A DNA stretch of 64,000 nt, from IMG/VR virus record IMGVR_UViG_2690315711_000004. The stretch is one strand, 5' to 3'. Below are positions 10,796 through 57,482 of the stretch, piece by piece. The position numbers and the translations under genes are program-made. Source of the stretch: an uncultured virus (IMG/VR IMGVR_UViG_2690315711_000004). Taxonomy: Duplodnaviria; Heunggongvirae; Uroviricota; Caudoviricetes. The stretch's first letter is position 1; every line of letters begins with the position of its first letter. The notes beneath the pieces are model-generated. The model had not been told where the DNA came from, searched no databases, and saw nothing but the letters and a program-made list of their open reading frames with translations.

Positions 10796-11194
10796 ATGAG
10801 AGATATGCAGGAAGTTTTATCACGTTGGGGGGCGTGGTCAGCTAATGAGGGAAATAGTATCGATTACTCATCAATTGCCGCAGGTTTTAAAGGATTAATT
10901 CCAAGTTCAAGACGAAGCCGAGAGCAATGTTCTGATGATGATGGCTTAAAAATAAATAAAGCGGTATTACATTTAAAGGTAAATAATAGTTACTTGTTTC
11001 AGTTGGTTATTATGTACTATGTGAAGAATTATCCTTTACGCTCAATGGCTTCAAAACTTGGCATTTCTCATAATGAAGTGGCTAAGCGATTGCAGACAGC
11101 AGAAGGATTTATTGAGGGGTGTCTATCGGTTGATAACGTAAAATTAGATATGGATAAAATAATTAGAAAACACAGCATTTATAGTCTTGTGTAA
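10796..11194 (+). CDS. Late antiterminator Q
   Basis: MRDMQ.VL.RWGAW, CSDDDGL, AEGFIEGCL; upstream of lysis region. Confidence 0.9.
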   Translation: MRDMQEVLSRWGAWSANEGNSIDYSSIAAGFKGLIPSSRRSREQCSDDDGLKINKAVLHLKVNNSYLFQLVIMYYVKNYPLRSMASKLGISHNEVAKRLQTAEGFIEGCLSVDNVKLDMDKIIRKHSIYSLV

Positions 11195-11327: not shown

Positions 11328-11534
11328 TTGCTATCTGCATTTTTCTATGGCTTAATAGCGTCACTGGTTTGGAAGTACAGACCTATTTATGTTAGTCAGT
11401 TTAAAGTTGTTCCCGTTTAGCGTTATCCTCGATACCTCTTCATTGTGAATTCCTTCTAATTAATTCCCATAAGTAAAAATACAAAACAAACCGCCTATGC
11501 CTTATGGCAAATTAAATAAATTAAAGGAAATTCT
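11328..11534 (+). promoter_or_regulatory. cspA-type promoter and long 5' UTR with cold-box-like sequence
   Basis: TTGCTA-17-CTTAAT (11328-11356), then GGTTTGGAAGTACAGACC similar to the cspA cold box; ~170-nt leader. Confidence 0.7.
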
Positions 11535-11747
11535 ATGTCTAATACAATGACTGGTACAGTAAAATGGTTTAACGATGATAAAGGTTTTGGTTTCATCACT
11601 CCTAAAGATGGAAGTAAAGATGTATTTGTACATTACTCTGCAATTCAGAGTGATGACTTCAAATCTCTGATGGAAGGCCAAGAAGTTTCATTTACCATGG
11701 AAAATGGTATGAAAGGCCCAGCAGCAGGCAACGTGGTGGCTCTCTAA
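11535..11747 (+). CDS. Cold-shock protein, CspA family
   Basis: [15 protein letters not shown] (RNP1), VFVHYSAI (RNP2). Confidence 0.97.
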
Positions 11748-11916
11748 AGGCGCTATTACTATTCGCCTCTATTTTAAATGCCCTTGTTGTAGCGGTTCAC
11801 AATATAGAACATCACAATTTGATGTCACAGTGAACAATCCACACGGCGCAAAATGTATCTTTTGCAAAAGTGTGATGACAGCACAAATGAGTTAAGCATT
11901 AAATAGTTGAATATAC

Positions 11917-11943
11917 AAAACCTCGCTTCGGCGGGGTTTTTTG
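11917..11943 (+). terminator. Intrinsic terminator
   Basis: AAAACCTCGC-TTCG-GCGGGGTTTTTT. Confidence 0.8.
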
Positions 11944-12291: not shown

Positions 12292-14493
12292 ATGGCCATA
12301 CTCACTCTCCGAAATGTTAAAAGCTATTCTGCTGATAAAGATGTAAATATAGATCTAAGTAAGCCTGTTACCCTCATTTATGGACAAAATGGTGCAGGAA
12401 AATCAACAATTTCAAGTTTTTTTTCAGGTTTTCAACAAGAAAAATACCAGCATTGTCATTTTGCAAGTCGTGAAAATTTTGCTTATTTTGTATTTAATCA
12501 GGAATATATAGAACAGAAGTTTCACCAAGAAATATATCAACCTGGTATTTTTACATTGAATGAGAAGAATGATGACGTTAACGGTAAAATTGAAAGTAAT
12601 AAGAGAAGAATTACTGAAATAAACAACTTACTAAACACTTTGGATACAGAGATAAAAAATAAAAATGATGCAAAGTCTACTGTTATCGAAAAGTACTCTA
12701 AAGTTATTTTTAAAAAAACTATCAATGATCGGCAATCGTTAGATTATTTTCTAGATAGAGCTAAACGAGTAAATAATTTTTATCAAAAAATGAGGGAAAC
12801 TTCATTAGGAATTCAAAAATATGAGCTGGTACAACTTACAGAGAGACTGGAGTTGTTACTTAATAGTGAAGGAACTCAATATACAGAGATTATTGAACCA
12901 GAGGTTTATGGCCTATCTGACGAAATGCTGACTCTACTTCAAAGTTCGTTGACAGCATCGTCCGATACACCATTTTCAGCCATTATTCAGCAGTTAGGTA
13001 ACGCTGATTGGGTTCATAGTGGAACAGGTTATATTAAAGATAATATTTGTCCATTTTGCCAACAAAAATTTGATTCTCAGCATCTTCTTCATGAATTGAC
13101 ACTCATGTTTGATAAATCTTATGAAGATGCTCTGGCAACGCTTACCCACAGTCAGACAGTCATTTCCCATGAATTAGACTTATTGGAGTCATTCCATGAG
13201 CATTTACGACAACACCCTGTAGTTAGTGATGATCACCAAGTTTTTAGTATTATTAAATCTCTGCAACAAACTTTACGTAATAATCTACAATCACTCAGAC
13301 AAAAGCTACTACAGCCTTCGCAATCCATACAACCTGACGTTATTACAGATATACGTCAGCATTTGAACCAGATACTGGTAACTTTAAATAGTAACATTAG
13401 AGACAATAATCAGTTGGCAGCCAATTTTAGTCAGGAGCGAGCTCGCTTGGCGGCAGATTCCTTTGCATATCTTAGAGAAGTGAGTGATCCTTATTTGCGT
13501 CAATGTGATCAGGAATTAGCAGAAATACAACAACAATTGCAAGCTGAGATAAATCAAGTTGATTTATTGAGAGATGAAGAGCGAGCACTTTCGGTCGAAA
13601 CTACTCATCTTATAGGGCAATTATCAGTTATACAGCCTACAATTGATAACATTAATTATAATCTGACACAATTAGGGATCAATGATTTCAATATTATTTG
13701 TCATGATGAGAGCTTGAAACTATATCGCTTACATAGACAAAACCAGCCAGATGATTCTGAGGTCTTTAAATCTTTGAGTGAAGGCGAAAAAACAATCATA
13801 TCTCTTCTCTATTTCCTAGAATCATGCATTGGTCACGTACCTGATAGCCAGACAATACAACCTAAACTGATTGTTATTGACGATCCTATTTCCAGCCTGT
13901 CACATAACTATATTTATGAAGTTGCTTCGATGATAAAACATAAATTAATTTTACCGAAGATTGCGCAACACATTGTTATATTGACGCATAATATATTTTT
14001 CTTTCAAGAGATTCTACTTTCAGTTTATAAACGATTGGCTCCCGAACGTACAACACCAAAGGGGTGTGCACTTTATCGCATCATTAAAGGAGAATATAGT
14101 GATTGTATCCCATTATCGATGCACGACATGCTGAATGAGTATCAGGCTTTATGGCAAACCATACGGGATGTCCGCGATGGAAGAAGTTTACCGGTAGTAT
14201 TACCTAATACAATGCGAAATATTCTTGAGTACTATTTCAGTTTTTCTTGCAAACAGGAAAAACTGGATAAAGCGCTAAATAAGCTAGCAGTTGAATATTC
14301 AGCAGGGGAATATGACTCATTTTATCGAGCAATTAACCGTCATTCCCATTCTGATGGCAGAAATATCATGGCTACAGGAGTGATTAATGTAGAAATGTAT
14401 TTCCGTTTATTTCAGAAAATTTTTGAAGAAACGAAGGATTCTGATCATTACAACACGATGATGGGGATTACTGTTGAGCAAACAGAAGGTTGA
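12292..14493 (+). CDS. rloC: RloC-like Rad50/ABC ATPase with zinc hook and C-terminal HEPN-like nuclease domain
   Basis: Walker A GQNGAGKS, CPFC hook inside coiled coil, LSEGE signature, IDDPISSL Walker B, LTHN, then RNILE and RAINRHSH. Confidence 0.78.
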   Translation: MAILTLRNVKSYSADKDVNIDLSKPVTLIYGQNGAGKSTISSFFSGFQQEKYQHCHFASRENFAYFVFNQEYIEQKFHQEIYQPGIFTLNEKNDDVNGKIESNKRRITEINNLLNTLDTEIKNKNDAKSTVIEKYSKVIFKKTINDRQSLDYFLDRAKRVNNFYQKMRETSLGIQKYELVQLTERLELLLNSEGTQYTEIIEPEVYGLSDEMLTLLQSSLTASSDTPFSAIIQQLGNADWVHSGTGYIKDNICPFCQQKFDSQHLLHELTLMFDKSYEDALATLTHSQTVISHELDLLESFHEHLRQHPVVSDDHQVFSIIKSLQQTLRNNLQSLRQKLLQPSQSIQPDVITDIRQHLNQILVTLNSNIRDNNQLAANFSQERARLAADSFAYLREVSDPYLRQCDQELAEIQQQLQAEINQVDLLRDEERALSVETTHLIGQLSVIQPTIDNINYNLTQLGINDFNIICHDESLKLYRLHRQNQPDDSEVFKSLSEGEKTIISLLYFLESCIGHVPDSQTIQPKLIVIDDPISSLSHNYIYEVASMIKHKLILPKIAQHIVILTHNIFFFQEILLSVYKRLAPERTTPKGCALYRIIKGEYSDCIPLSMHDMLNEYQALWQTIRDVRDGRSLPVVLPNTMRNILEYYFSFSCKQEKLDKALNKLAVEYSAGEYDSFYRAINRHSHSDGRNIMATGVINVEMYFRLFQKIFEETKDSDHYNTMMGITVEQTEG

Positions 14494-14971
14494 TGAAATT
14501 ATCACCTGCGGGCACCACACACTCAACGGATCGGGAGCGAGCGCATATGCTTACGCACATGTTCTACGCGCCCGAAACGAAAACGAGTGTACCAACGAAC
14601 TGGTACGATTTTCGGTCTCATAGGGCTATCCTTTTACAAACCGACTACTGCCGGAAGTCCCTGTACCCATTACAGGCATGCAATGATATAGAGAGGATTA
14701 CCCGAGGTGATAACCCCTTAATAATACACAGTTCCATAAAATAAACCACCTTTCTTTGAATAATGTAGTCATTCTATGTCTTCGTAGTGTTATACATAGT
14801 TGTAATTGTAGTTGTCCTCAGAATGAAGGGTTGAAGTCAGTAGAATGGCCTAAAGTTATTCATCAAAAGATAGTATGCTCAGGTTGTCCTTGTTGAACTA
14901 AATACAGTTTTAAATAGTTTTATCTTAATTCATTAATTTAATTGATATAAAAGATATATAATACAAACAAT

Positions 14972-15078
14972 AAAAAAATGCCGATACGCTAGGAGTCATA
15001 TCGGCATATAAAATAAACGCAAGAAGCAATGTAAGTCATGTCGTACTAATCCGTATCAAACCTGTCAATTTGATATAC
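14972..15078 (-). ncRNA. Candidate Fur-repressed RyhB-like sRNA, copy 1
   Basis: Minus-strand ACGACATGACTTACATTGCTTC (19/22 to the recalled E. coli RyhB core), 5' hairpin, terminator 14972-15007, promoter under a Fur box. Confidence 0.72.
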
Positions 15079-15081
15079 CTG

Positions 15082-15112
15082 TAATGATAATTATTATCAT
15101 TAATATATTCAA
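15082..15112 (-). promoter_or_regulatory. Fur box overlapping a sigma70 promoter
   Basis: Perfect palindrome TAATGATAAT-T-ATTATCATTA 15082-15102; TTGAAT-17-TATCAT on the minus strand. Confidence 0.85.
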
Positions 15113-15405
15113 CCCTAAATTAAATAAGGTTACTTTGTAGCCTTTTCATTTACGCCGACCACAGAATCAACATCCACTTATATCATTCACACAAGAGCTG
15201 TGAGTCGGCATCTTATTGATTAAATTTTTCGTTAATTTAGTTGAGTTTTACTTTAAGAGAGTTAGGTATGGAGTATTTACTTTGAAGAAGGAAATGAAAA
15301 TCTCAATGTGTAATGATAAGTCTCTTAAATAATAGACCCCAATTATTTTTGGGGTCATATATTGAGATTATTGAATTAATATCCCTGATATTGATTTATT
15401 ACGAA

Positions 15406-15741
15406 TTAATTTTCAGGTGCAATAGCATCCAATACTCGAGCAGAATAAACCATCGCAGCACCAGTATTTAATGCAACAGCAACACCGAGTGCTTCTGCAA
15501 TTTCTTCATGACTAGCACCCAACTTTAAAGCGGTGTCAGCATGTACGGCGATACAACCATCACAGCGTGTTGTGACTGCAACTGCTAATGCGATTAATTC
15601 TCTTGTTTTTGCATCTAAATGATTAGTTTTTTTACCTGCATTGGAAAGTGCTTGGTAGCCAGTAACCGTATCAGGTGTTAATTTTCCTAACTCACCAATA
15701 CGTCCCATTAATTGTTTTCGATATTCATTCCAATTAAGCAT
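15406..15741 (-). CDS. AhpD/carboxymuconolactone decarboxylase family protein
   Basis: LDAKTRELIALAVAVTTRCDGCIAVH with CxxC. Confidence 0.9.
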   Translation of the reverse strand: MLNWNEYRKQLMGRIGELGKLTPDTVTGYQALSNAGKKTNHLDAKTRELIALAVAVTTRCDGCIAVHADTALKLGASHEEIAEALGVAVALNTGAAMVYSARVLDAIAPEN

Positions 15742-15844
15742 GATATTAACCTTATTGAGTTAACTGAATTATTGGTTGACATTATGGGATGAAAAAAAAG
15801 ATGATGACATCATCAAACGAATCAATTTTTAGTGAATTAGTCTC

Positions 15845-16771
15845 ATGGATACGTTGAGCCAACTCTTATACCTTTCTCAAGGGCAATTGCAATTAGATGT
15901 GTTTTGTCAAATGAAAGGACATTTTTCCTTACCGCATGTTTCATCTGTTGAACATGAAACTATTTTTCACTTAGTTCTATCAGGGCAGTGTTATGTTCAA
16001 ATTGAAAAATCAGCCCCTATAGTTTTATCCGAAGGTACTTTTTTAATGTTAAACAGAAGGCAATCACATACCCTTTGGAGTGGAGAACGAGATATAGAAC
16101 CTCCCCCTTTTTTGCATAAAAATAATGGCTTCTTACCTGTTAAGTACACAAAATCTGAAGATCAGACTCAACATGTTGATTTGCTTTGCGGGCGAATGGC
16201 TTATGCTAAAGGAAGCGGGTTACTATTATTAAATGGGTTTCCTGATATGGTAGTGGCAAATTTGGTGGAAATGCCAGGGCTAACAGTATTGAATTTATTT
16301 AGCCAGTTGCTTCGAGAGGAAGCCATTAATGCAAATCAAGGGGCGGCTGCGATACTAAATGGGCTTGCTCAGACTTTATTCGCTTTTGCATTACGTGTTT
16401 ATGGGCAAAAACCAGATATAAACTCAAGTTGGTTAGCATTATTAGCTGAACCTCGGTTAAGTCGTGTATTTAATTCTATGTTAAATGAACCACAAAAAGG
16501 GTGGACACTTGATTCTTTAGCTAATGTCGCTTCAATGTCACGAGCGACTTTTGTGCGTCAATTTAAAGCAACGGCGAATACGACACCTGGCGAAGTTCTA
16601 CAATCCATTCGTATGCTAAAAGCACTTTCATTATTACAACAAAATAAATATACATTATCAGATATCGCAGAAAGAGTCGGATACCAATCTGAAGCTGCAT
16701 TTAGTAAAGCATTTAAAAGTGTATTTAATTGCAGACCAGGGCAGTGGAAGAAGCAACAGAGTAAAGTGTAA
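15845..16771 (+). CDS. AraC-family regulator with cupin sensor, RclR-like
   Basis: MDTLSQLL start, Cys21 and LLCG cysteine positioned like the RclR sensor cysteines; C-terminal AraC double HTH (GYQSEAAFSKAFK). Confidence 0.85.
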   Translation: MDTLSQLLYLSQGQLQLDVFCQMKGHFSLPHVSSVEHETIFHLVLSGQCYVQIEKSAPIVLSEGTFLMLNRRQSHTLWSGERDIEPPPFLHKNNGFLPVKYTKSEDQTQHVDLLCGRMAYAKGSGLLLLNGFPDMVVANLVEMPGLTVLNLFSQLLREEAINANQGAAAILNGLAQTLFAFALRVYGQKPDINSSWLALLAEPRLSRVFNSMLNEPQKGWTLDSLANVASMSRATFVRQFKATANTTPGEVLQSIRMLKALSLLQQNKYTLSDIAERVGYQSEAAFSKAFKSVFNCRPGQWKKQQSKV

Positions 16772-16811
16772 AAATTTGCACAGAGTAAAGAAGAATTATT
16801 ACTTTCTTTTG

Positions 16812-16833
16812 AAGTCACTTCGGTGACTTTTTT
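16812..16833 (+). terminator. Intrinsic terminator
   Basis: AAGTCAC-TTCG-GTGACTTTTTT. Confidence 0.8.
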
Positions 16834-16965
16834 GTTATCTAAAGTAAAAACGAAATTATATTTGCGCTTAAATTAATCGCTGAGTAAGGGAATTGAGAAG
16901 CAGAAGAAGTTCACTATTACTTAAGTGACGGGAATGCTGTTCGAGTTATCATTCCCGATTTGAGT

Positions 16966-17085
16966 AAAAAAAAGCCGACGCGCTAGGAGTCATGTCGGCA
17001 TAAATCTTCGGGAAAAGTGTTAATAACGAGAGCGATCATTAACTATAAAGCAATGTATCAATATCGGAGAAAAAACAGACACGTT
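16966..17085 (-). ncRNA. Candidate Fur-repressed RyhB-like sRNA, copy 2
   Basis: Minus-strand CGATATTGATACATTGCTT seed-like segment; terminator nearly identical to copy 1 (loop CGCTAGGAGTCA on the plus strand). Confidence 0.62.
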
Positions 17086-17089
17086 TAAG

Positions 17090-17118
17090 AATAATAATCA
17101 TTATCATTTAATTGTCAA
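17090..17118 (-). promoter_or_regulatory. Fur box overlapping a sigma70 promoter
   Basis: AATAATAATCATTATCATT 17090-17108 (1 mismatch to AATGATAATCATTATCATT); TTGACA-16-TATTAT on the minus strand. Confidence 0.8.
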
Positions 17119-17178
17119 TTATATGAGGTCACTACAGTGACCTTTTTCTTGTCTAAATATGATATATATCAATAAAAG

Positions 17179-17616
17179 GTGTGTGTTATGTCAAAAGAGA
17201 TAAGCGAATTACAGTTTAGTCTTCACTATGCCTCAGAAACAGACAGTGAAAAGAATACCTCCGCCATTTTAACGGCGAATATCCATACGACTGATGGTGA
17301 AACTCAACAACTGACACAATTAATTTGCACGACATCTTCCGCAGGTAAAAAGCAATATCGAATCGGCTTGCAAAAAATTAGTGATGCTGGTGCTCCATTG
17401 CTGGTGGCGATTGAATCCTATTGGCGTAAAAACACACAAGAGAGTTGTGTTTATTTGTTAGAGAAAGCGAGGCAATTTATTCAGGGACACTTACAACAAA
17501 CGAATACATGGATATCCATGTACGGCCTTGTGATTGTTTCTAATGCGTCACTTGAAGAGCAGTTGCCTGAGGCTTTATTAACATTAATTCATTCAAAATA
17601 TGCTAGTCTTTCTTGA
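17179..17616 (+). CDS. Hypothetical protein (probable start 17188)
   Basis: Long ORF with AGGTG RBS; no recognised motif. Confidence 0.7.
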   Translation: MCVMSKEISELQFSLHYASETDSEKNTSAILTANIHTTDGETQQLTQLICTTSSAGKKQYRIGLQKISDAGAPLLVAIESYWRKNTQESCVYLLEKARQFIQGHLQQTNTWISMYGLVIVSNASLEEQLPEALLTLIHSKYASLS

Positions 17617-18457: not shown

Positions 18458-18733
18458 GTGACTATGCGTATGGAAAAATTAACCAATGTAACTTATGGAA
18501 CCGCAGGCTTAACGGCCTTTTTTGCCAGTCTTTCGTTATATGAATGGGGATTTGTTATCGGGATGGCGTTCAGCATGCTTCTCGGTTTAGCCACTTACTT
18601 TATGACTCGTCGAGAACAACGAAAACGCACTCAATTATTTGAAGAGATTGTTCGACATGTTGACCCACAAAACCCAACTGAAACCCTAAAAAGGCTTGCT
18701 GAATTAATGGTGAAAGCGCCAAAGGATATTTAA
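18458..18733 (+). CDS. Holin (HP1-family-like)
   Basis: Small hydrophobic protein immediately before the endolysin; M-R-M possible dual start. Confidence 0.82.
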   Translation: MTMRMEKLTNVTYGTAGLTAFFASLSLYEWGFVIGMAFSMLLGLATYFMTRREQRKRTQLFEEIVRHVDPQNPTETLKRLAELMVKAPKDI

Positions 18734-19203
18734 TGTCTCTCAAACAGAAAATAGCGGCGGTAACAACAGCAGGAGCCACAGCCATCGCGTTAGTAGTAAT
18801 AGCCCATTTTGAAGGTGTACGTTATGAACCTTATCGTGATGTGGCGGGTGTTCTAACAGTTTGTTACGGACACACAGGTAAAGACATTATTCAAAGTAAG
18901 ACATACTCACAACAAGAATGTGATGCGTTATTACAAAACGATTTTATTAAGACACAACAGCAAGTCGATGCATTAATCAAAGTACCACTCGATGACTACA
19001 CCAAAGCCGCTTTATATTCCTTTGCTTTTAATGTGGGAACGACCACATTTGCTCGCTCAACATTACTTAAGAAACTAAATGCGGGTGATAGAGCGGGTGC
19101 CTGTGAAGAAATAAAACGTTGGGTATATGCGGGTGGAAAGGTTTGGCGAGGTCTTGTTAGTCGTCGAGAGGCGGAGTCAGTACTATGTCATGGAAACCTT
19201 TAA
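18733..19203 (+). CDS. SAR endolysin (GH24 lysozyme)
   Basis: N-terminal Ala/Gly-rich SAR helix; E-x8-D-x5-T triad (FEG..YRDVAGVLT); GLVSRR. Confidence 0.93.
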   Translation: MSLKQKIAAVTTAGATAIALVVIAHFEGVRYEPYRDVAGVLTVCYGHTGKDIIQSKTYSQQECDALLQNDFIKTQQQVDALIKVPLDDYTKAALYSFAFNVGTTTFARSTLLKKLNAGDRAGACEEIKRWVYAGGKVWRGLVSRREAESVLCHGNL

Positions 19204-19343
19204 TCATCATTATCAGCTTTATTCTTGCATTACTCATTACAGTCGCTGGTGGCATTTATCTCTTGATTGATAACTCATGTACTAAAGACCAAGTGAGTTT
19301 AGAAAAGCGCTGTCAGATTGCACTCTCATATCATCGGTACTAA
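19185..19343 (+). CDS. 52-aa single-TM protein with C-x10-C, between endolysin and spanins
   Basis: MSWKPLIIIISFILALLITVAGGIYLLIDNSCTKDQVSLEKRCQIALSYHRY; GGAG RBS; fills the gap to Rz. Confidence 0.7.
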   Translation: MSWKPLIIIISFILALLITVAGGIYLLIDNSCTKDQVSLEKRCQIALSYHRY

Positions 19344-19345
19344 TC

Positions 19346-19807
19346 ATGAAATACGAAAAACTCTATGCCGTCATTGCGATGGTAGGCATTATTGTGGGAG
19401 GCTATTGGGTGATTAATTGGCAAGCTAACAGAATTAATCTATTAGTAGAAACAAACAAAGAACTAACGGAGGCTCTCGAAGAACAGAAGTCTATTAATAC
19501 TGACTATCAAGCACGCATAATGCGATTAAATCAGTTGGATATTCAATATACGCAGGAGCTAGCGAATGCTAAGAATGAAATTAGTCACTTGCGTGATATT
19601 AGTGAGCGTCATCCAGAGCGGGTGTACATCAAAGCCGAGTGTCCCAAAGTCAAAACCACTCCCTCCACCAGCTTGGCTTATGCAACCACCGCCCGACCTA
19701 CTGACACCGCTATCCGAAATTATTGGTTACTCAGAGAGCGAATTGCAGAGTCAGAGCAAATGATTTTGGGGTTACAGGATTATATTAGAGTGGAGTGTGT
19801 GAACTAA
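19346..19807 (+). CDS. Rz-like i-spanin
   Basis: N-terminal TM, coiled coil, YWLLRERI..LQDYIR..C ending. Confidence 0.9.
   Translation: MKYEKLYAVIAMVGIIVGGYWVINWQANRINLLVETNKELTEALEEQKSINTDYQARIMRLNQLDIQYTQELANAKNEISHLRDISERHPERVYIKAECPKVKTTPSTSLAYATTARPTDTAIRNYWLLRERIAESEQMILGLQDYIRVECVN
19566..19763 (+). CDS. Rz1-like o-spanin lipoprotein embedded in Rz
   Basis: Signal ending in SG-C, proline-rich PPPAWLMQPPPDL, +1 frame within Rz. Confidence 0.85.
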   Translation: MLRMKLVTCVILVSVIQSGCTSKPSVPKSKPLPPPAWLMQPPPDLLTPLSEIIGYSESELQSQSK

Positions 19808-47855: not shown

Positions 47856-49758
47856 ATATTTATGATTCCTATTTTAAATAAAAGTTAGGTTATTTTTATT
47901 TTTTTAACAAAAAATTAAATTACTATTTGAATAATGAATAAAATTTAAAAACAACAAAGTTATTTATTGATTTTCAAATATTAAAAATTAATAAAAAAAA
48001 GAGTAAAATTTTTAATTAATCTCCTGCAACAAATAATTAACCCTGGTGTTTTATCTTTTAATTTCTAAATTTAAATATCGCTTAAGTCAAAATGTTTTTT
48101 TCGATCGATCATCTTATTTTTGATAGATGTAACCTATCAATATATACAAACCGATCGATAAAAACGATCTATGTGGATTTTTTCAATAACTTACGATAAT
48201 AAGTAGGATTAAATCATCTGGTTTGAACAGCAATTTAATTTTTATTTTTTTAATTTTAAATAAGATTTATATTGAATATTTGTTTATTCTTATTTATAAA
48301 AACTAAGTATTATTAATTTATTTCTAAATAATATTTAGAACGATGTAGAATCAAGTATAGTAGAAGAGTATAAATAATTATTAATATAAAGGTGAGGGAA
48401 TAATTCTATTTAGGTAGGAATGATGTTCTATTGTGATTTTCTGGAAACCATTGAAACATTGGAAGAACTTAATGAAGTTTAAGATTAAAATTTACAAAAA
48501 CAGCTTAAATCATCAAAATAAGATAATAAATAAAAAGATGTACTATATCAAATATATATTTGATATATTTTTATATAGATAATTTTTCGTAATTAATATT
48601 TTTAACAGGAATAAAAATTTCTTTTGAAAGTAATCATCAGTGTTTATCTATTATTCTTCTTAAAAGTATATATTTCTTTTTTATTCATTGAACTTTAATT
48701 TAATAATAATATATTGCTCAAATCAGATACTTGATTTTATATTCTCCTTAAATAATGACTCTTTAATAATCTCATTTTGATTAAAGAATCTACGGATAAA
48801 AAATACTGATCTATCAACATCAGCTTTATGGCCCAATTTAGATTTCTTGTTATTATTGTACTTTTTAGCTATAAGAGGTAGTTGAGCCATTTTTAGCTTT
48901 ATAAGGTGTGCTATTTATGAGAATCATTTTTACGCAATACATCAAAAATCAGCTTGGCGAATTAGTCAATGAATATTTAATGTAAACCAAACTTGCTAAG
49001 ATTAACAAACGTAGTAAGTGTGTAGTTGTGGTCATATTTTTTGAAGAATATAAGTAATTTACATTGCTTAAGTTATAAAATTAAAAACTATTATTAATAG
49101 CGATATCAATTGAACGTGTACAATAATAATTAATATCATTAAAAAAACAATCTATTGTTGGATTTGAGCACAGAGACGCTCTTTATGCAAATGTAAGAGG
49201 TTTTCTTGTTAAAACTATAATATCTCTTATTAAGAGATTTCGAACATATAGAGGTATTATATTAAACTCAAGATCCAAATACTTATTTTTAATAAAATCT
49301 AAAAAATATTATCAATAAAAATTATATTTTATATAACTTATCTATAATTATAGTTTATCTTTTGGTTGAGGAAGTATTTGTCTAATTACCTTATTAAACA
49401 CTGTATTTTCAACAATATAATAATTGTTAATATTACCTTAATAGTATTATTATTAGTAATAATATTTTACCTTAAAATTAAAGTTTATCTTTTCTTATTC
49501 TTTAACTTATTCATTATATTTATTTGTATTTAAGCTACGACTGTTGTATGATATATTATATGGAATATATAAACCAATATATAATTCAGTATAATCATTC
49601 TAGCTGTTAAAATATTCTTATATGATATATAAGAGAATATAATATAAGTCAATGAAATATATAAGTCAATGAAATTTAATTTATTGCAGAAATAATAACT
49701 TAACTTAATTACATTAATATGATTTAAGTTATATTATGTTTTCGCAACTAATTTTATA

Positions 49759-51003
49759 TTGATAACGATTATGTCTTATAAATATAAACGTAAAATTTTT
49801 CTTGGAAAAAATGTATTAGAAGCTGCTCAAGAACGGATTAAGTGGATATTTGATACTTTTGAACAAATTTCACTCTCTTTTTCTGGAGGAAAAGATTCTA
49901 CCGTTCTTTTTCATCTTATTGCTACAGAAGCACGAAAGCGACATAAAAAGTTTAATGTAATGTTTCTTGATTGGGAAGTTCAATATTCAGCAACCATAGA
50001 GCACATTACAAAAATGAAATCTATCTACCAAGATTGTACGGAACAGTTTTACTGGATAGCACTACCTATCACCACTGAAAGTGGTGTTTCTCAATATGAA
50101 CCTACATGGACAGCGTGGGAGCCTGGTAAAAAATGGGTAAGACAACCGCCAGAAGATGCGATAACTGACCCTCACTTTTTCCCTTTTTATCATCCTAATA
50201 TAATTTTTGAAGATTTTACCCCTGCATTTAACCAGTGGATCACAGGTAATCATCGCAGTTCGATTATCCTGCTAGGCATAAGAGCGGATGAATCTTTAAA
50301 CCGATTTATTGCCATTAGTAATAATCGAAAGTTACGTTATGCCGATGATATTCCTTGGACAACAGCATCTCCAGAAGGTTTTTACTATATGGCCTACCCT
50401 ATTTATGATTGGCATGTTAAAGATATTTGGACTTATATTGCGCGTTTCAATTTACCCTATAACCCTATTTATGATCTGATGCACCAAGCGGGCGTTAGTT
50501 TAAGTCAAATGCGTATTTGCGAACCTTTTGGGCCAGAGCAACGCAAGGGACTATGGTTATACCATGTTTTAGAACCTGAGACGTGGAGTCTTGCTTGTGA
50601 ACGAGTGAGTGGAGCTGATGCCGGAATGTTATATACAAATCCTCGTAATAAATCAGGTTTCTATGGGCGACATCAAATTAGCAAACCATCCCATCATACC
50701 TGGAAATCTTATGCTCACTTTTTATTAGCCAGTTTACCAGAGAAAACAGCAGAACATTATCGTAATAAAATAGCGGTCTATCTTCGCTGGTATGCCGAAC
50801 GAGATTACCCAAATGGCATACCTGATGCACAAGAAGGTGATACTAGTAGTAAACAAATCCCTTCTTGGCGACGAATTTGTAAGACCATCTTGCGTAACGA
50901 TTTTTGGTGTAGAACATTAGCATTTAGTCCAACAAAATCACATTGTTATGATCGATATTTTAAACGAATACAAGAAAAACGAAAAAACTGGCAACTTATT
51001 TAG
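49759..51003 (+). CDS. IbrA/YbdN-like PAPS-reductase-family protein (probable start 49771)
   Basis: SFSGGKDS PP-loop, GIRADES, YPIYDW, MRICEPFG, PSWRRICK. Confidence 0.88.
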   Translation: MITIMSYKYKRKIFLGKNVLEAAQERIKWIFDTFEQISLSFSGGKDSTVLFHLIATEARKRHKKFNVMFLDWEVQYSATIEHITKMKSIYQDCTEQFYWIALPITTESGVSQYEPTWTAWEPGKKWVRQPPEDAITDPHFFPFYHPNIIFEDFTPAFNQWITGNHRSSIILLGIRADESLNRFIAISNNRKLRYADDIPWTTASPEGFYYMAYPIYDWHVKDIWTYIARFNLPYNPIYDLMHQAGVSLSQMRICEPFGPEQRKGLWLYHVLEPETWSLACERVSGADAGMLYTNPRNKSGFYGRHQISKPSHHTWKSYAHFLLASLPEKTAEHYRNKIAVYLRWYAERDYPNGIPDAQEGDTSSKQIPSWRRICKTILRNDFWCRTLAFSPTKSHCYDRYFKRIQEKRKNWQLI

Positions 51004-52922: not shown

Positions 52923-52953
52923 TGGTGGTCTGGCGGGAGTTGAACCCGCGTCC
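52923..52953 (-). other. ssrA: att site: displaced 3' fragment of the tmRNA gene
   Basis: Minus strand GGACGCGGGTTCAACTCCCGCCAGACCACCA versus tmRNA end ...CCCGCCAGCTCCACCA; 90 bp from the integrase stop. Confidence 0.88.
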
Positions 52954-53043
52954 TGAGTTGTTCAACTGATTGTAATATAAGAGCTTATTATATCTGTCAC
53001 GCTACGCGTATGATTTACGGCTCAACTATAGTCCTAATTGTGG

Positions 53044-54216
53044 CTATCTGCTGTCTACTTTCTTTAAAATAGAAGTGTTGCCATCATACTCTTTCAAATA
53101 CGATCCATAATGTCTGAAAAGCATTTCAGGGCCTTTATGTCCCATCTGTGAAGCCAACCAAAATAAGTTAACTCCATTGCTAATATGCTTGACAGCAAAT
53201 GTATGTCTTGTTTGATATGGGTTCCTATATCGTACTCCAGCTTTCTTTAGTGTTGGTACCCATGCTTTTTTTCTAATTGCGTCAGCACCAGCCCAAGCCT
53301 CATTTGTTTTTGGATCTTCAAAAATAGTTTCATTTTTTAAAAAAGTGAATTTCTTTTGGGAGCTTATGGCTGAAATAGCATATTCATTCAATTCTATAAT
53401 TCGTGTTCCAGCTTTCGTTTTAGTGCCCTTAATCACGCCAACAACACTAGCTGATTTGATATGCGCTTTGTTGTTAATGAAATCAATATCATCCCACCTC
53501 AACGCACATAATTCAGAGCTACGTAAGCCTGTGTTGACTGCAAACTGAAATAAGTTTTTCCATTGATCATATTTTGTGGAGCTATATATTTTATCTACCT
53601 CTTCAGGCGTTAAAGGATCTACAACATAGTCACTCTCTAGCGAACTACTTTTTGTCTGATATCTTGATGCGGTTACTAAAGTTGCTGGGTTAGATAGAAT
53701 TAAACCATCAGTTACCGCCTCATCTAAAGCACTTCGTAAGAAAGATAATTGATTTCTAATTGTCTTTAATGACGTATTCTGTTTTTGTATCCATGTTTTT
53801 AATATCCCTGGCGTTAAATCAACAACTGATAAATCGTGTAATGCAGAAAGTGCATTTTTACATTTTTTATAACCAACAATTGTTGATGGTGACAACTCTC
53901 TAGTTTTACAAATATCTAAATACTCATCTAGATATTCATTTATGCTCCTTCCTTTGCATTTATTACCAAATATTTTTAATTTTGATGATTTAGGGAAATA
54001 TTCAACATAAGAAAAAATTCCTTTTTCTATTTTGTTATATATCTCACCTAATAAACGTTCTGCGTATTTTATGTTTTTAGAGTTTATTTCAAGATTAGAT
54101 AGAGGTTCACGGCAATGAACCCCTTTAAATGTGAATGAAATATTAATTGTTTCTCCTGATTTATGCTTACGAATCATAACTCCGCGGGGAAGTTTATTTT
54201 GTTTTGTCTGGCCCAT
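53044..54216 (-). CDS. int: Tyrosine integrase (unrelated to int 1)
   Basis: TGLRSSEL, YQTRHTFA, QMGH..Y motifs; N-terminal arm-binding domain. Confidence 0.95.
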   Translation of the reverse strand: MGQTKQNKLPRGVMIRKHKSGETINISFTFKGVHCREPLSNLEINSKNIKYAERLLGEIYNKIEKGIFSYVEYFPKSSKLKIFGNKCKGRSINEYLDEYLDICKTRELSPSTIVGYKKCKNALSALHDLSVVDLTPGILKTWIQKQNTSLKTIRNQLSFLRSALDEAVTDGLILSNPATLVTASRYQTKSSSLESDYVVDPLTPEEVDKIYSSTKYDQWKNLFQFAVNTGLRSSELCALRWDDIDFINNKAHIKSASVVGVIKGTKTKAGTRIIELNEYAISAISSQKKFTFLKNETIFEDPKTNEAWAGADAIRKKAWVPTLKKAGVRYRNPYQTRHTFAVKHISNGVNLFWLASQMGHKGPEMLFRHYGSYLKEYDGNTSILKKVDSR

Positions 54217-56654: not shown

Positions 56655-57482
56655 TTAAGCTGAAAACTTGCCAATGAATGTTTCGATATCACTTTCATCA
56701 AATTCATCACAAAGTAGATTGCGAAACTCTTGAGCGATTTGTTCTTCAAGGTTTTCAAGTTGGACAATACGGAGCACTAAAACGGGAACATCACCGCCAG
56801 TAAGCACGCTATAACGCAATTTAATACTACGTTCTTTTAACTCGTCATATGGGGTGCAGGTAAACTGGAATGCAGTAGGCATAACATCTTTGCTTCTTGC
56901 TTCAACATTTTCTAATACTGAACGTTTGGCGCTAAAATCGTGATCTTCATGTTCAGCAGAGCGTGTTGATTCAATTGTAATACGGCGGACAGCAGAAATA
57001 GCTTGTTTGATATCTAAAACATTGCCGTCAGCATCAAACGCCATTAAATAATCACGCCAGTCTTCTAACCATTCCGCTAATTCTTTTTGACGATGTTTAA
57101 CACCATCAATTTTTAATAGTGCTGCGAATGGGGCAGTTTGTTTTAATTTCACAAGAGCAGTATTATCAGCATGACCAGGCTCACCAATTGTGCCGATATT
57201 AAAAATAGTTTTGGCACTCATTTCATCGGCATCAATAAAGCAGCTAACACCTTCATCAATTGCATTTTTGATTGAGTATTTAACAAAGTCACTGATACTG
57301 GTTGTTTTCATTTCACCACGGAAACGGAAGCGACCTTCTTGTAAATTTTCCAAACTACTCACTTTAAATTCATTTGGAAGAACAATGGCGGGGCAAAGAG
57401 ATTTCTCTATTGCTTCGAGACTTAATGAAGCCACTGCCATATTTTGAATTTGCGAAATAGCACTACCGTCTAATTGAGACAT
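56655..57482 (-). CDS. YfdQ/DUF2303 family protein
   Basis: Homolog of 2000-2827. Confidence 0.8.
   Translation of the reverse strand: MSQLDGSAISQIQNMAVASLSLEAIEKSLCPAIVLPNEFKVSSLENLQEGRFRFRGEMKTTSISDFVKYSIKNAIDEGVSCFIDADEMSAKTIFNIGTIGEPGHADNTALVKLKQTAPFAALLKIDGVKHRQKELAEWLEDWRDYLMAFDADGNVLDIKQAISAVRRITIESTRSAEHEDHDFSAKRSVLENVEARSKDVMPTAFQFTCTPYDELKERSIKLRYSVLTGGDVPVLVLRIVQLENLEEQIAQEFRNLLCDEFDESDIETFIGKFSA

Follow-up and report, generated by a model that had tools for sequence, protein, structure and literature searches.

RyhB is the Fur-repressed, Hfq-dependent, iron-sparing small RNA (sRNA) of enterobacteria and a textbook core-genome sRNA. The known case closest to the gene described here is the Salmonella RNA known as IsrE, RfrB or RyhB-2, a RyhB paralogue encoded on a genomic island with Fur sites over its promoter; as given in the available part of the source, the Fur sites of Salmonella ryhB and isrE match the consensus at 13-16 of 19 positions (PMC2330248). 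This paralogue is described, in the available portions of two texts, as having its own regulation and targets and a non-redundant function (PMC2330248, PMC4211561). The sRNAs of E. coli prophages, including DicF, the Pas sRNAs, svsR and the anti-sRNAs of Stx phages, act on host mRNAs according to two further sources (10.64898/2026.05.13.724894, PMC12803456) and other published abstracts. For Proteus, one preprint does no more than name RyhB as one RNA of a P. mirabilis isolate. Among open-access full texts, there was no report of an altered-core RyhB derivative as a genus-wide cassette of temperate phages, nor of such an RNA in Proteus or phages at all.

The locus described here lies in a 64-kb window, by which we mean the whole stretch of DNA that was analysed, and was described in an initial annotation, made from the sequence alone, as a prophage-encoded, Fur-boxed, RyhB-like sRNA gene. 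The host element is a lambdoid prophage, in line with that annotation, and the sRNA forms a discrete promoter-to-terminator gene situated between Q/cspA and the lysis genes (Table 1). At this late-early junction of the prophage, the genes leading up to Q encode a replication protein, Ant and a DUF968/HNH protein, while Q is followed by cspA, a gene for a 733-aa AAA_13 protein, an 84-aa ORF and then the sRNA on the opposite strand. Past the sRNA come an opposite-strand CMD-family gene, an AraC-family regulator and a second Fur-boxed sRNA (copy 2), followed by a phrog_2473 gene, holin, endolysin, Rz and terminase. The sRNA lies on the opposite strand to Q and the lysis genes, in agreement with the claimed antisense orientation. 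An insert of 1,958 bp parts it from the phrog_2473 gene, which abuts the sRNA block in most relatives. Having its own promoter and terminator, lying in the late region and being present in some genomes only, the cassette is a phage moron.

Several other elements were observed in the window. The prophage holds a full cspA gene with a thermoregulator leader (11363-11789, plus strand; 222.9 bits in Rfam), and weak, sub-threshold matches to istR and RsmY (26.2 and 23.5 bits) just past cspA (11847-11942, plus strand) probably represent the terminator region of cspA. At the edge of an apparent second prophage, a 390-aa ORF (53044-54216, minus strand) adjoins a fragment that matches the tmRNA model (52923-53000, minus strand; 20.4 bits, E = 0.0003), a position that would fit an integrase next to an attachment site in ssrA.

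Table 1. Coordinates of the sRNA cassette, its sibling and the neighbouring prophage features in the window.
Feature	Position	Strand	Basis
Q	10796-11194
Whole cassette	14971-15112	-	all features present
Predicted sRNA transcript, ~107 nt	14971..15077	-	promoter geometry, RNA-seq 5' end, terminator, Rfam RyhB alignment
Intrinsic terminator: 11-bp stem, 8-nt loop, 7 U	14971..15007	-	fold and terminator scan
U/A-rich linker UUGCGUUUAUUUUAU, directly before terminator	15008..15022	-	sequence
Core/seed ACGACATGACTTACATTGCTTC (= ACGACAUGACUUACAUUGCUUC)	15044-15023	-	sequence, RyhB alignment
5' hairpin UAUCAAAUU / GGUUUGAUA	15075-15054	-	fold
RNA 5' end, likely transcription start, 6-8 nt past -10	15076-15078	-	RNA-seq run X21
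-10 hexamer TATCAT, 17-nt spacer from -35	15089-15084	-	sequence and promoter scan
Fur box, perfect 10-1-10 palindrome TAATGATAAT-A-ATTATCATTA, overlapping -10	15102-15082		sequence
-35 hexamer TTGAAT	15112-15107	-	sequence and promoter scan; conserved in relatives
Conserved upstream block travelling with the sRNA	15113..15225		alignment, mean pairwise identity 0.92-0.95
Terminator-like hairpin in upstream block, then TTTTCATTT	15126-15144	+	terminator scan
Insert of 1,958 bp: CMD-family (AhpD-like) gene, AraC-family regulator, copy-2 sRNA	15226..17183
Sibling sRNA (copy 2)	16965-17118	-	promoter and terminator scans
Holin, endolysin, Rz	18458-19807 (holin from 18458)

The promoter, the 21-bp Fur palindrome, the 5' hairpin, the 22-nt core, the AU-rich linker and the terminator were all found where they had been placed, and the feature is real and its description confirmed, with two details in need of qualification. 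The terminator consists of a stem-loop at 15007-14978 followed by seven T at 14977-14971 according to the fold and the terminator scan, and its stem, previously given as 9 bp, has that length if the two closing A-U pairs are omitted but 11 bp in the fold. Similarly, the statement that the RNA contains no ORF holds for long ones, but a 16-codon ORF starting at 15039 and a 34-aa ORF with a TTG start are present. The minimum-energy structure consists of two hairpins with an open seed between them, and the energy of this single-sequence fold does not stand out (z = -1.77), with 9 of 200 shuffled sequences reaching an equally stable fold. The window contains a single occurrence of the core, compared to 0 expected. 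Like that of RyhB, the predicted 3' module is of the Hfq type, with an 11-bp stem, seven U and a preceding UUUAUUUUAUAU. In Hfq-dependent sRNAs the stretch just ahead of the terminator is the usual Hfq-binding site, and by analogy the linker may play this role here.

A consensus scan scored the promoter at 9 of 12 matches, and sequence and scans together upheld the claim of a promoter with this spacing under a Fur palindrome. The palindrome matches 16 of the 19 positions of the Fur consensus, in the version printed in the available part of PMC2330248. Sites with at most three mismatches to this consensus number 3 in the 64-kb window, compared to 0.09 expected, and all three lie at the promoter of this gene or at the sibling promoter near 17090. 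Most relatives carry AATGAGAAT... at the Fur box, one base off the palindrome. As in the RyhB family, a predicted Fur-binding site is therefore situated over the promoter. A third, weaker Fur-box-like site, with 2-3 mismatches to the box of the sRNA itself, was observed outside the prophage at 49122-49140, ~620 nt upstream of an ORF at 49759-51003.

Fourteen RNA runs hold all or part of the stretch, and three raw-read runs and one contig run were mapped on 14800-15300. In run X21 (107 reads), reads with the first mate on the plus strand reached a depth of 20-45 over 14800-15071, dropped to 7 at 15072-15088 and to 0 beyond 15089, and 13 of them carried non-templated, C/T-rich loose ends at 15076-15078; their assignment to the minus strand follows the usual library convention, the mapped stretch containing no known gene to check it against. 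Because the edge is sharp and the C-rich additions are those of reverse transcriptase running off an RNA 5' end, we read this edge as a transcription start. In one run, therefore, an RNA end is found where the promoter predicts the start, and the sRNA promoter appears active. The depth in X21 does not drop at the terminator, and a minus-strand signal of 28-45 continues beyond it, antisense to the cargo, which could reflect either read-through or loss of the 107-nt species during library preparation. Reads in the other direction had a depth of 12-18 that faded to 0 between ~15000 and 15200, suggesting plus-strand cargo transcripts that end near the hairpin of the upstream block. In X23, from the same study, the depth was 3-6x and no edge was present, indicating that expression varies between samples. 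Depth was similar in both read directions in X24, so that the strand could not be distinguished, and in the contig-only run X1 the stretch falls within one piece of 3,368 nt that carries no end or strand information.

The Rfam model of RyhB (RF00057) aligned end to end, over positions 1-67, onto 15050-14972 with 30.1 bits (E = 0.0017 in the 701 nt searched and E = 0.16 over the whole window). The gathering cut-off of this family is 55 bits, and on this point the proposed assignment fell short: at the gathering threshold the window contained no RyhB match, the sole match being that of the cspA thermoregulator. Since the Infernal score lies under the family threshold, the gene is a diverged derivative rather than an annotatable RyhB, and the same low score means that Rfam annotation at the gathering cut-off would miss genes of this cassette. 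Judged by architecture and alignment, the sRNA gene is RyhB-derived, although formal membership in the family fails by score.

As the source of host RyhB sequences we used G001, the nearest genome available to compare, which contains four RyhB matches above the cut-off (80.6, 72.7, 60.4 and 59.9 bits), all chromosomal and all carrying ACGACATTGCTCACATTGCTTC behind a Fur-box promoter. The core of the phage RNA is identical to the core ACGACAUUGCUCACAUUGCUUC of these four genes at 19 of 22 positions. Because all four carry ACGACATTGCTCACATTGCTTC, the RyhB core given in the initial annotation and its count of 19/22 were right. The 3 changes of the 22 all fall in the first of the two CAUUGC repeats and leave the second intact, and the 3' flank of the core is also altered (CUUCUUGCG in the phage, CUUCCAGUA in the host). 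In an alignment of eight sequences, the -35, Fur box, core and terminator are in register between phage and host copies, and the phage sequence resembles one host copy in its upstream TTATTTAATTTAGGGTTGA and has its terminator loop CUCCUAGCG in common with another. The claim of relatedness to RyhB accordingly rests both on the end-to-end alignment with the Rfam model and on the alignment with the host genes.

With regard to genomic position, two of the G001 copies lie 1.7 kb apart downstream of a cspA homologue. This homologue is 86% identical to the cspA region of the prophage, and the chromosomal layout with its paired RyhB genes mirrors the phage order of cspA, cargo and sRNA (seen in locus L009, 13051-14881). 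Another copy sits between pspF and a sap-like operon, and the syntenic copy (contig C47) between a pirin-like and a HI0933-like gene, near a gene for a PHO4-family phosphate transporter. Rather than at this syntenic chromosomal locus, the phage gene is found at a prophage site between Q/cspA and the lysis genes. The cspA-RyhB region of the G001 chromosome may have been the source of the phage cassette.

A scan for the exact core, made to describe the distribution of the gene, gave 8 loci from 6 named species of Proteus as well as 44 IMG/VR contigs; the assignment to the genus Proteus is based on the named records carrying the exact core. A distant-mode search of deposited phage genomes, with a 301-nt region as query, gave no match. 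By BLAST, the 151-nt gene was present in 15 of 21 species-representative genomes of the genus and absent from the species representatives of 177 other genera of the family (396 genomes). Its presence in 15 of 21 genomes, not in all, indicates that the cassette is dispensable for the phage backbone, as expected of a moron. Two additional scans were anchored outside the core, on a terminator pattern and on a pattern in the upstream block, to avoid circularity. The terminator-anchored scan returned 52 loci. Six of these are of the copy-2 type; of the other 46, 43 have the exact core and 3 differ in it by one change or by a deletion of 5 nt. In the upstream-anchored scan the core was exact at 39 of 44 loci, and the 5 variants include a deletion of 12 nt from the core.

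Conservation was assessed as mean pairwise identity among the 40 distinct sequences of the upstream-anchored scan. Identity was 0.92-0.95 in the upstream block, 0.95 in the Fur box and -10, 0.81 in the start and hairpin, and 0.97-0.99 in the seed, linker and terminator, and it fell to <0.5 within ~50 nt past the U-tract, so that conservation ends at the terminator. High identity among copies could partly reflect recent spread of one phage module. Across 25 relatives, pairing was retained in 92.8% of the paired cells of the 5' hairpin, with no compensatory change, in 98.9% of those of the terminator, and in 96.2% overall; the terminator shows one compensatory change from U-A to C-G and one U-G intermediate among relatives. 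A covariation test, in which the 1 compensatory pair was equalled in score by 52 of 500 shuffles, is uninformative because the copies are nearly identical.

Some copies deviate from the common form. One (L018) is without promoter and hairpin, one (L109, in the pair L109/L191) has a 5-nt deletion inside the core, and two (L193 and, on contig C53 of G001, L198) have a 12-nt deletion inside the core. A further copy, in genome G235 (L199), has the core ACGACGTAACTTACATTACTTC, with three further core substitutions. G001 carries both the 12-nt-deleted form and a copy-2 form.

Copy 2, the sibling sRNA within the insert, has a promoter with TTGACA (11 of 12 matches) and a Fur-like box at 17108-17090, and carries a single ACAUUGCUU motif. 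Its terminator is homologous to that of copy 1, with the compensatory change from U-A to C-G, and a terminator-like hairpin similar to that of the upstream block also precedes it. In Rfam it gave no RyhB match even at E = 10. The six further loci of this type among the 52 terminator-anchored loci are from IMG/VR, and one is present on contig C39 of G001.

The position of the cassette relative to its neighbours was examined at the 52 exact-core loci. At 35 of these its immediate neighbour is the phrog_2473 homologue ahead of the lysis genes, at 12 it is 47-48 nt from a cspA-like block, 4 share the 1,958-bp insert of the window, and the remaining one is L018, which has lost promoter and hairpin. 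On the other side, past the sRNA terminator, the flank is hypervariable in both content and orientation, as seen in the related loci L013-L064. From this terminator side we collected 63 distinct proteins of >=170 aa, 28 of which match PADLOC models at E < 1e-10. The matches include several Gabija pairs, SIR2-HerA, Lamassu, a retron RT-Toprim and AbiP2/DRT, as well as PD-T7-1, PD-T7-5 with AbiGi, a type II restriction-modification pair and bSEFIR. The cargo of the window itself (12292-14493), the 733-aa AAA_13 protein, which was scanned via a near-identical copy in locus L051, matches the PADLOC candidate system PDC-S06 and, weakly, PrrC. Given that the terminator-side flank is variable and rich in PADLOC matches, these results imply that the sRNA cassette forms the conserved edge of a defence hotspot.

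We also compared the pairing potential of the phage and host RNAs. Pairing with sodB of G001 was measured as contiguous helices, since unrestricted RNAduplex gave long, loop-filled pairings that did not discriminate. At the sodB start codon, ACAUUGC of the phage RNA would pair with GCAAUGU through the second motif (7 bp, -7.2 kcal/mol), compared to 8 bp and -10.1 kcal/mol for host RyhB (GACAUUGC/GCAAUGUC), and the changed core bases fall in the motif that gives host RyhB this best, 8-bp match. Searching G001 for the 13-nt complement of the new motif with at most one mismatch gave 5 matches, compared to 6 for the reversed control, and none of the 5 lies at a start codon. The wobble-coded complement of the 22-nt seed had 12 matches in G001 against 14 for the reversed control; 4 of the 12 are the ryhB genes themselves and the other 8 are not at gene starts. 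When both strands of the window were scanned for duplexes, no pairing fell in a start region. The best non-self duplex in the window is an 11-bp GCAAGAAGCAA inside the phrog_210 genes at 2000-2827 and 56655-57482. This sequence, at 2211-2245 and 56866-56900 (minus strand) in homologous genes of both prophages, pairs with the 3' part of the sRNA seed. We rejected it as a candidate target, as a match of this kind is at chance level (~0.8 expected, by a rough estimate) and is not at a start region. No target emerged from the searches of G001 and of the window.

Based on these data, this moron of a Proteus lambdoid prophage probably encodes an RyhB derivative that is repressed by Fur, acts in trans as an Hfq-type RNA and has a retuned seed. 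From the sequence we infer Fur repression, Hfq dependence, action in trans and all targets, along the following lines. When iron is present, Fur bound to the palindrome over the -10 would block the promoter, and iron starvation would lead to production of the ~107-nt RNA, in which a 5' hairpin gives protection, ~45 nt of seed region stay open, and a U/A-rich site of the Hfq type precedes the terminator and its U-tail. This RNA would most likely pair with mRNA start regions, in trans and with Hfq. In its predicted pairing segment the second RyhB motif, ACAUUGCUUC with the anti-start-codon CAU, is kept and the first motif and 3' flank are changed, so that the regulon of the RNA should overlap that of host RyhB without being equal to it. 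A bolder version, which we put forward tentatively and consider rather doubtful, is that temperate phages of Proteus took a host RyhB gene and reprogrammed its seed, with the cassette as the fixed edge of a defence hotspot beside the lysis genes. Under such reprogramming, the existence of several seed versions (the one described here, the single-motif sibling, the variant with three changes and the deletions) would mean that new targets were placed under the control of Fur and iron, and the genes concerned might be those of the host, of rival phages or of the adjoining defence cargo, which is overlapped in antisense.

Alternatively, the gene might simply be an additional RyhB copy that controls the iron-sparing regulon already served by the four chromosomal copies and matters by dosage only, in keeping with its promoter logic, the retained second core motif and the 7-bp pairing at the sodB start, and with sibling RyhB RNAs of Salmonella and Yersinia having largely overlapping roles, according to the available part of one source (PMC4211561). 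However, the host already has four canonical copies, the three substitutions lie in the motif that best matches sodB, the 3' flank differs (CUUCUUGCG as opposed to CUUCCAGUA), and it is the altered core, not the canonical one, that stays invariant across prophages; we therefore regard a pure dosage role as improbable. Much the same standing is given to the idea that the cassette is a recombination anchor or a decaying relic beside the site of defence-cargo exchange, and its RNA functionless. The hypervariable, defence-rich flank (28/63 proteins with PADLOC matches) and the decayed copies (the promoterless L018, the 5-nt deletion in L109, and the 12-nt deletion in L193 and on contig C53 of G001) fit an anchor or relic, but neither would need an intact Fur box, -10, seed and terminator all together, identity is highest exactly over seed and terminator and is lost after the U-tract, the promoter appears active, and intact copies outnumber decayed ones (39/44).

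Somewhat less improbable, yet still unlikely, is an element that acts mainly in cis, as an antisense RNA or a boundary, with convergent transcription at low iron altering the stability or read-through of the cargo or lysis transcript. With the cassette placed where the variable cargo region ends, plus-strand cargo transcripts and Q-dependent late transcripts would cross it, and either a fully complementary RNA or transcriptional collision could then come into play. The sRNA strand is indeed opposite to Q, cargo and lysis genes, the cassette has cargo on one side and a conserved neighbour on the other in every case, and in X21 the plus-strand signal crosses the sRNA gene at 12-18 and is gone by ~15200, near the hairpin at 15126-15144, while the minus-strand signal, antisense to the cargo, keeps a depth of 28-45 beyond the sRNA terminator. 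This coverage comes from one run, though, and the adjoining cargo varies in identity and orientation, so that no single cis partner is conserved; action in cis also leaves unexplained why the 22-nt core is the best kept part and why it resembles RyhB. By far the least credible alternative, and one we give very little weight, is a tiny protein gene or dual-function RNA, in which the ATG created by the altered core opens the 16-codon frame MTYIASCVYFICRYDS that ends in the terminator loop. The ORF exists, and its ATG is absent from the canonical core; nevertheless, the only Shine-Dalgarno-like element is a bare GGA ~10 nt upstream, the three natural core variants change an amino acid in two cases and delete the ATG in the third, and the sequences are too uniform to show codon-level selection.

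If the RyhB-derivative reading is true, the prophage would read the iron status of its host via Fur and act on mRNAs in iron starvation. Iron starvation is typical of Proteus infection sites. A rewiring of host iron homeostasis in iron-poor niches such as urine, as put forward in the initial annotation, would be a speculative extension of this reading. The natural seed variants would also provide a ready series for studying the evolution of sRNA specificity, and the cassette could be used as a marker for the defence-gene hotspot in Proteus prophages.

Compared to RyhB (RF00057), the phage gene shares a Fur box over the promoter, a length of ~100 nt, a core with the CAUUGC motif, a U/A-rich stretch and an intrinsic terminator, but it scores 30.1 bits against a cut-off of 55, differs in 3 of 22 core bases, in the 3' flank and in the 5' part, and is found in a prophage instead of the syntenic locus. 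Like IsrE, as described in the available portions of the literature, it is a horizontally acquired sibling of RyhB with Fur consensus sites over its promoter. In contrast with IsrE, which in those texts keeps the core (nt 37-69) and diverges elsewhere, the phage RNA has an altered core, and while IsrE belongs to a chromosomal island, the phage cassette is present genus-wide by the lysis genes of intact-looking lambdoid prophages. It resembles the E. coli prophage sRNAs covered by the accessible texts in being carried by lambdoid prophages, in some cases in the region from Q to lysis; none of those RNAs, in the same texts, is described as a derivative of a core-genome sRNA or as having a Fur box, whereas the phage RNA copies the promoter logic of a host regulator together with part of its seed. 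Finally, like other morons it has its own promoter and terminator, lies between Q and the lysis cassette and is flanked by terminator-like hairpins, but it differs from them in encoding an RNA and in being conserved next to variable cargo.
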